DNA of 64,000 nt, taken from Escherichia phage vB_EcoM_IME537. How positions within the stretch are numbered: position 1 is the stretch's first letter; each line of letters starts with the position of its first letter. A program made the translations under genes and the position numbers. The notes beneath the pieces are model-generated. The model was not told the origin of the DNA. It saw nothing but the letters and a program-made list of their open reading frames with translations, and searched no databases. Location of the stretch: the sequence record NC_054921.1. One strand, given 5' to 3'. Shown here piece by piece: positions 50,900 through 51,966 of the stretch.

Positions 50900-51760
50900 T
50901 TACACCGCCATTTTTCCTTTAATAGGAGGGTGTGATTCGTAACCTTTAAGAACGAAATCTTTAGGCCTGAGTTTAAGAACATATTCCAATTGTTCTTTAG
51001 TAGAAAGATAGCGGAATTTATAAGGCAATCCGCCTATTACCAGTTCACAAAGCTCTTTAGGTTCACGACGTAAAATTTCTTTACACTGTTCTATGTGATT
51101 CATATAGATATGAGTATTACCACCAGAAAATATCAAATCTCCTGGAATAAGATTACACATCTTAGCTACAATATGAACTAATGCAGCATATGATGCAATG
51201 TTGAATGGCAAGCCCAAGAACACGTCAACACTTCTTTGATACCACTGCAAATCCAAATAGCCATTACGCACATTAAACTGATAAAACATATGACAAGGTG
51301 GTAATGCCATATGTTTAAGTTCAGCTGGATTCCATGCTGAAACAATTTGACGCCTATCATTCGGCAGTTTTTTAATACGATCAATAACTTCTACAATTTG
51401 GTCTACACCGCCAAAATCACGCCACTGTTTTCCATAAATTGGACCAAGTTCACCACTATGATATCCTAAATCTTTTGCTTGATTTTCGTAATTTTCATCC
51501 CAGACTGTTTTGCCTTGAATTAATGAATCATGCTGAATTAATCGTAAATCATTTACGTTAGTACTTCCTGACAAAAACCATATTAGCTCAGCAATACAAG
51601 CTTTCCAGGCGAGCTTCTTAGTCGTTACTGCAGGAAAACCTTTAGTTAAATCCCAGCGTAATTTAGTACCGAACAAAGCAATTGTTCCTGTGCCTGTTCG
51701 GTCATCGGTTTCATAACCGTTTTCCAGGATATCTTTAATTAAAAATTGGTATTGTTTCAT
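50900..51760 (-). CDS. td: Thymidylate synthase, intronless
   Basis: 286 aa from ATG 51760 ([10 protein letters not shown]...); active-site PPCH; continuous ORF. Confidence 0.95.
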   Translation of the reverse strand: MKQYQFLIKDILENGYETDDRTGTGTIALFGTKLRWDLTKGFPAVTTKKLAWKACIAELIWFLSGSTNVNDLRLIQHDSLIQGKTVWDENYENQAKDLGYHSGELGPIYGKQWRDFGGVDQIVEVIDRIKKLPNDRRQIVSAWNPAELKHMALPPCHMFYQFNVRNGYLDLQWYQRSVDVFLGLPFNIASYAALVHIVAKMCNLIPGDLIFSGGNTHIYMNHIEQCKEILRREPKELCELVIGGLPYKFRYLSTKEQLEYVLKLRPKDFVLKGYESHPPIKGKMAV

Positions 51761-51966
51761 TAGTTCATCCAAGAATATGTAGAAGGATATTTGGCAAAGT
51801 TAGGCTTATATCCTAATTTAACCATTTGTTTTGCTTTGCGAGTAAATCCTAAAGAACGCTCACCTTTAAGATATTGTTTTGGTGTCATAGGCCCTTGATG
51901 CATCTGCCGACAAATAAAAAGAGCCATAGCATTAGGAACATCCTTAACTTTTAATTTATTGCTCAT
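51760..51966 (-). CDS. 68-aa basic protein inserted between frd and td
   Basis: ATG overlaps the frd stop (ATGA); its TAA overlaps the td ATG (TAATG). Confidence 0.6.

Follow-up and report, generated by a model that had tools for sequence, protein, structure and literature searches.

The small gene that lies between frd (dihydrofolate reductase) and td (thymidylate synthase) in Escherichia phage vB_EcoM_IME537 is one of two mutually exclusive cassettes found at the frd-td junction of T-even-type phages. It is an already known, repeatedly deposited and PHROG-catalogued hypothetical gene, and its presence in the 64,000-nucleotide stretch of DNA analysed here (hereafter the window) is a routine gene-content difference from phage T4 that matters little as it stands. 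Its 68-amino-acid product is, as modelled, a compact and strongly basic three-helix mini-domain without detectable relative among known folds or families. Taking all lines of evidence together, we consider it probable that this member of PHROG 9550 is an accessory gene that is passively exchanged between phages and dispensable to them, and whose product binds a polyanionic partner. The features on which the argument rests, and those of the neighbouring genes, are collected in Table 1.

Table 1. Positions of the features discussed; coordinates refer to the window unless another record is named.
Feature	Coordinates	Strand	Remarks
68-aa ORF, PHROG 9550 member	51760..51966	minus	translation exactly as in the preliminary description; 7.9 kDa, pI 10.3
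frd, dihydrofolate reductase, 194 aa	51963..52547	minus	starts at ATG 52547; stop overlaps start of 68-aa ORF
td, thymidylate synthase, 286 aa, 861 nt	50900..51760	minus	without intron; ATG and ORF stop share one base
AATGA direct repeat, left copy, 5 bp	51963..51967	minus	holds the ATGA of frd stop and ORF start
AATGA direct repeat, right copy, 5 bp	51757..51761	minus	inside the TAATGA of ORF stop and td start
td.1 cassette, about 416 bp, T2	L012 1652..2064		frd-td junction
td.1 cassette, about 416 bp, AndreasVesalius	L013 1671..2018		frd-td junction
Spacer after td.1, T2	L012 2018..2064		before td
68-aa ORF of JS98 (EF469154)	L011 3001..3207		98.5% identical; unannotated
nrdA, split	47172..50340	minus	
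nrdA piece, 477-aa ORF	48907..50340		
nrdA piece, 329-aa ORF	47172..48161		
HNH-type homing endonuclease gene, 236 aa	48151..48861		separates the nrdA pieces
Second, MobE-like HNH ORF, 243 aa	46441..47172	minus	between nrdA and nrdB
nrdB	45272..46477		without intron
nrdA.2, 87 aa	50613..50876		
Region between nrdA.2 and nrdA	50331..50659	minus	short ORFs only (62 aa, 36 aa)
Gene 32 ORF, 402 aa	53960..55168	minus	about 301 aa expected

The junction in the window and in T4

The region is about 99% identical to Escherichia phage vB_vPM_PD112 and of T-even type, with its genes on the minus strand, and both frd and td are intact in the window, td being uninterrupted. At the frd-ORF junction, which reads TAT AAA TGA GCA on the coding strand, the frd stop TGA (51965..51963) and the ATG of the ORF (51966..51964) overlap as ATGA (51966..51963). 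At the ORF-td junction, which reads TGG ATG AAC TAA TGA AAC, the ORF stop TAA (51762..51760) and the td ATG (51760..51758) overlap as TAATG (51762..51758). These are the two overlaps by which the preliminary description had the ORF coupled at both ends, and both are confirmed in the sequence. The same description considered the ORF to be extra relative to T4, on the strength of a direct overlap of frd and td in that phage, and it named the presence of the ORF in T4 as the finding that would make the arrangement ordinary. In the T4 genome (NC_000866) frd occupies 145109..145690 and td ends at 145112, which corresponds to a direct 4-nt ATGA overlap with nothing between the two genes; the ORF is absent there, the direct overlap is confirmed and the ORF is indeed additional. 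The extra DNA amounts to 206 bp, and not to 207 bp, because the ORF stop and the td ATG share one base, and the BLAST spans of 507 bp against 301 bp agree with this figure.

The ORF thus shows the arrangement of a gene in a coupled operon, with same-strand stop/start overlaps with both neighbours and no consensus promoter or terminator between. A scan of positions 50800-53200 with a sigma-70-like consensus, T4 middle and late promoters lying outside its scope, gave five weak matches, none of them in or directly upstream of the ORF, as compared with an average of 8.8 in shuffled sequences, and no terminator-like site was found in the same regional scan. Given these results and the position of the ORF in the frd-td-nrd block, we infer that it is co-transcribed with frd and td. 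The Shine-Dalgarno sequence before the ORF is weak in the window, and the last codons of the ORF (TGG ATG AAC TAA) provide td with a GGA-type ribosome-binding element. Coupling by termination-reinitiation is suggested by the ATGA and TAATG overlaps; ribosomes would pass from frd to the ORF and from there to td, so that the coupling achieved in T4 by a single ATGA would be kept despite the intervening cassette. A regulatory RNA structure within the ORF was also considered and was rejected, as the ORF has no credible Rfam match and its folding relative to shuffled sequences gives z = +0.98.

Among the neighbouring genes, nrdA is split into two ORFs by the HNH-type homing endonuclease gene. The same insertion, annotated as a homing endonuclease between nrdA pieces, is present in 33 phage records (HY01, PEC04, AV111, UFV-AREG1 and others), and we take the split gene to resemble the genes-in-pieces nrdA of Aeromonas phage Aeh1. 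In the interval between nrdA.2 and nrdA, T4 has the 108-aa nrdA.1; of the short ORFs found there in the window, the similarity of the 36-aa frame is limited to the C-terminal end of the PHROG 464 profile, and nrdA.1 looks truncated or decayed. Gene 32 is longer than expected as gp32 reads through into frd.3: about 75 bp of the T4 sequence are missing, namely the last 8 codons (LDDLLNDL), the stop and the terminator hairpin, with a breakpoint near 54270 at a poly-T run. The top database matches of this segment all align in two pieces, over about 246 bp for a 171-bp query, and the 75-bp loss is absent there; the loss may be either an assembly error or a real deletion.

Alternative cassettes at the frd-td junction and their exchange

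The frd-td junction of T-even-like genomes is found in three states, empty, with a td.1 cassette of about 416 bp, or with the 206-bp ORF cassette. The td.1 gene encodes 115 aa (PHROG 1928), is present in 363 T-even-like records, including T2 and T6, and takes its name from the T2H record. In one BASEL record it is called 'putative homing endonuclease', a label that is unsupported, td.1 having no Pfam domain and no detectable nuclease domain. The td.1 protein and the 68-aa protein are unrelated (hhalign probability 0.2%). When a chimeric query made of half of td.1 and the 68-aa ORF was used, 499 records matched one of its two parts and no record matched both; the two genes are thus strictly alternative in T-even-like genomes, with about 363 records holding td.1 and about 136 holding the ORF cassette. 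Since the frd-td flanks match 513 to 600 records, depending on the query, and 499 records hold a cassette, the empty T4-type junction is the minority state; among the matches listed, it was seen in T4 stocks and a few others, e.g., JEP6, G2133, SG1, HY03, G28 and FL18. T4, the reference genome, is therefore atypical at this junction, most T-even-like records holding one of two small genes. All three junction types coexist among genomes that are otherwise 93-99% identical.

These distributions bear on the proposal of the preliminary description that the ORF is a novel insertion, which they do not support. Proteins 100% identical to the one in the window are found in dozens of deposited genomes, and it is the empty junction that is uncommon. 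Moreover, a PHROG 1928 gene lies directly upstream of the homologue of the 68-aa gene in Marfa, CIP9 (two copies) and 4S, so that the order frd - td.1 - 68-aa ORF - td exists in other lineages. Because this tandem is found in outgroups, a loss in the T4 lineage would be at least as plausible as a gain in the lineage of the window.

Evidence for exchange comes from Dhakavirus JS98. The nucleotide identity between the window and JS98 is 86.7% in frd and 76.6% in td, but 98.1% in the ORF, and a sliding comparison delimits a patch of about 270 bp (51990..51720) with 97-100% identity, its flanks being about 77-87% identical. The patch extends over the ORF and some tens of bases into the gene on either side. 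Judging from this pattern, it is a product of recombination, the cassette having moved recently between the Tequatrovirus and Dhakavirus lineages via homologous flanks. A short sequence of the T4 junction is directly repeated at the two ends of each cassette, AATGA in the window and TAAATGAAA in T2, and removal of the 206 bp between the AATGA copies gives the exact T4 junction sequence. Homologous recombination of the ordinary kind, acting through the conserved flanks in frd and td, would account for the presence/absence pattern, to which deletion between the short direct repeats may add, and self-mobility of the cassette would be unnecessary. Note also that some records, including that of JS98, leave the 68-aa gene unannotated; in the latter an apparent gap of 200 bp separates frd and td.

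The spacer that follows td.1 in T2 contains TTTAGCTTCA and, 10 nt on, TATAAT, which we take to resemble a T4 MotA-dependent middle promoter. If this reading holds, T2-type phages may possess an extra td promoter that is absent from T4 and from the window.

The PHROG 9550 family and its product

Homologues of the protein are carried by 236 phage records (tblastn), 87 of them at 99-100% identity. The match to PHROG 9550, a family annotation without function, has an E-value of 1.3e-45 and places residues 1-68 on profile positions 1-68 of 68. The residues conserved in the family alignments (K4, K6, P11, R20, K34, G40, M48, L51-G52-Y53 and P55) are all present in the window. Where synonymous sites are unsaturated, dN/dS is 0.08-0.28 (Nei-Gojobori; comparisons with JS98, Marfa, CIP9, 4S and one metagenomic homologue). 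On account of the number of records, the low dN/dS and the strong Shine-Dalgarno sequences found in three of four distant homologues, the 68-aa frame is, by its pattern of substitution and distribution, a genuine protein-coding gene under purifying selection and not a chance frame.

The homologues of Dhakavirus JS98, Marfavirus Marfa, Kanagawavirus CIP9 and Serratia phage 4S each directly precede td, whose start overlaps their stop; with the lineage of the window included, td adjacency was thus found in all five Straboviridae lineages inspected. More distant homologues, with about 43% identity, were found in phAPEC8 and many related Phapecoctavirus, as well as in three contigs of metagenomic phages (L006, L008 and L009). 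In phAPEC8 and these contigs the gene is one of a long series of small hypothetical genes that share its direction, and no td adjoins it; its ribosome-binding site reads AAGGAGG in phAPEC8, GGAGG in L006 and GAGGTG in L008, and is at most a weak GGA in L009. A conserved partner gene outside Straboviridae was considered and rejected, the neighbours in these four genomes belonging to unrelated PHROGs. An HMM search of 1.84 billion representative proteins returned 11 matches, ten genuine clusters and one spurious 1402-aa repeat protein, with no annotated distant relative among them; a scan of IMG/VR gave 8 loci, mostly from phages already found, and no match indicating a host or prophage origin was obtained in 5,426 complete E. 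coli genomes. In these searches the family proved small, and its members were limited to virulent myoviruses that infect enterobacteria.

Between the window and Marfa, the ORF products have an amino-acid identity of 81%, compared with 76% in Td and 47% in Frd, and by this measure the 68-aa protein is conserved more tightly between genera than either of its enzymatic neighbours. The synonymous sites have diverged in the same comparison (dS about 0.9), which indicates that this conservation reflects real protein constraint and not recent transfer. Our search of the literature, which covered the frd-td ORF, PHROG 9550 and accessory-gene screens, returned nothing on this gene. In other records the ORF has been labelled 'flagellar biosynthesis protein' (PYPS2T) or 'DUF4858' (Shinka), and neither label is supported. 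In the case of DUF4858, the ORF has no Pfam match at E <= 1, and none of 21 family members matches the DUF4858 model.

The description of the product as a small basic protein proved accurate: it contains 13 Lys+Arg against 2 Asp+Glu, and all family members tested have a pI of 9.9-10.6. The AlphaFold2 model, obtained from a 32-sequence alignment, is compact (mean pLDDT 84.9, pTM 0.62), with predicted helices at residues 13-24, 29-38 and 43-49, against which the conserved N-terminal segment and an aromatic C-terminal tail are predicted to pack. Fold searches with this model gave no match to solved or viral folds, and the predicted three-helix fold matched no known helix-turn-helix or homeodomain-like domain. 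Likewise, neither the 68-aa ORF nor its family members have a match in Pfam, NCBIfam or PADLOC, and PDB sequence searches, whether run with one sequence or with a profile, returned none. The protein thus ranks among the better-conserved genes of phage 'dark matter', and its confident predicted structure makes it a reasonable target for functional study.

Candidate functions and known counterparts

The reading that we prefer is that of a dispensable accessory factor which is probably not a thymidylate-pathway enzyme and which, in infected cells, would bind some conserved polyanionic partner. This partner would most likely be nucleic acid or a protein that is acidic or handles nucleic acid. Polyanion binding is suggested by the uniformly high charge, the small compact fold that is predicted, the tight constraint and the restriction to virulent enterobacterial phages.

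A role in counter-defence or host range, by which both cassettes of the slot would neutralise a host defence or a strain-specific host factor, is a rather unlikely alternative. It would explain the patchy distribution and the exchange of the cassettes, including the either/or polymorphism among near-identical phages and the cross-genus patch in JS98, and it fits the occurrence of homologues in small-gene arrays of unrelated virulent phages, one of them near a Tad2-like gene, the absence of homologues from the complete E. coli genomes searched and the restriction of the family to enterobacterial phages. However, with dN/dS of 0.1-0.2 and 81% identity across genera the gene is unusually conserved for one engaged in an arms race; it matches no defence-related profile in PADLOC, and the accessory-gene screen papers searched do not mention it. 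The alternative also overlaps with the preferred reading, since a basic protein could inhibit a nucleic-acid-targeting defence.

That the protein works with thymidylate synthase or with the T4-type dNTP-synthesising complex, e.g., as a Td- or Frd-binding modulator or as a bridging subunit, its placement and its coupling to td being functionally required, we regard as unlikely. The highly conserved ORF is embedded among frd, td and nrdA, and its strict place just before td, which it overlaps stop to start in the five Straboviridae lineages, could reflect a td-linked function and not mere inherited synteny. Adjacency is nevertheless weak evidence, because the gene order of this region is inherited synteny throughout the family; furthermore, the homologues of Phapecoctavirus and of the three metagenomic contigs stand amid unrelated small ORFs away from any td, and most T-even-like phages do without the ORF, their slot being empty or holding the unrelated td.1. 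Distinctly improbable, in our estimate, is the most far-reaching proposal, in which the frd-td slot would serve as a dedicated exchange point. Its two alternative proteins would either adjust nucleotide metabolism or counter a host system directed against that metabolism, the 68-aa protein having a new fold with affinity for nucleic acid, Td or gp32, and each cassette would pass as a unit from one Straboviridae genus to another.

The td gene is a known target of introns and homing endonucleases. The preliminary description suggested on this ground that the ORF might be a remnant of such traffic, i.e., a decayed intron ORF or a fragment of a free-standing homing endonuclease gene at the 5' end of td, and attached importance to the lack of an intron in this td. 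The HNH endonuclease genes in and next to nrdA within the window, as well as the label given to td.1 in one annotation, would agree with that suggestion, but the data contradict it, and it retains very little probability. The gene is under purifying selection, and in other phage families, where it lies away from td, it is still conserved over its full length at about 43% identity. The protein has no BLASTP alignment with I-TevI at E <= 100, and searches for GIY-YIG or HNH homing endonucleases (I-TevI, Seg, Mob) found no Pfam or NCBIfam nuclease domain and no match in the PDB or among structures. It is unrelated to td.1, which itself lacks a detectable nuclease domain. As to the intron, a query that joined the end of T4 frd to td exon 1 and the intron's first 200 nt detected the intron in 233 records and with all three junction types; the ORF adjoins an intron-containing td in fFiEco06, fHoEco02, D5505, UTI-E4, Maryam, PM105, HEMP5, PYps5T and others. 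The absence of the intron from the window is therefore unrelated to the ORF, and the idea that the empty junction hitch-hikes with intron homing was rejected on the same ground. Finally, that the ORF is a pure spacer, a functionless peptide whose translation matters solely for delivering ribosomes to td, has next to no probability: the overlaps at both of its ends and the GGA-type element in its last codons would suit such a role, but amino acids are conserved where synonymous sites are saturated, the dN/dS values contradict it, the same protein is conserved where no td follows, and T4 couples frd and td without the ORF.

An accessory gene with a polyanion-binding product, as we prefer to read it, may be compared with several known systems. 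Free-standing homing endonuclease genes of T-even phages (segG, mobE and their relatives) are likewise optional, lie between conserved genes of the region and vary among close relatives. The ORF, by contrast, is too small for such a gene, lacks nuclease domains and motifs and gives no sign of biased inheritance, the identity patch shared with JS98 showing exchange, not drive. The td.1 gene of T2 uses the same slot, is bounded by a short direct repeat of the T4 junction, is likewise present in some phages and absent from others, and in Marfa, CIP9 and 4S adjoins the ORF homologue in tandem. However, td.1 is larger and unrelated in sequence, overlaps neither frd nor td, from which it is separated by non-coding spacers, and is never found together with the ORF in T-even-like genomes.

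The junction of T4 is identical to that of the window in the sequence upstream and in the ATGA that follows frd, so that the start of the ORF uses the signals which serve td in T4. In T4 the ATG is that of td itself, whereas here it is followed by 206 bp and then by the second overlap, TAATG. Within the same family, gp235 of phAPEC8 (YP_007348396.1) and its counterparts in other Phapecoctavirus are 43% identical over 97% of the length, of the same size class and of similarly high pI; they differ in having a strong ribosome-binding site of their own and in being part of an array of small hypothetical genes, not beside td. Lastly, the 'hypothetical protein' of PHROG 9550 in the Tequatrovirus phages pSs-1, Sf21, fPS-65, fFiEco06 and IME339 is 100% identical, with the same frd-td position and the same overlaps. 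There is no difference between these and the gene described here, and the window holds another copy of the same catalogued gene.
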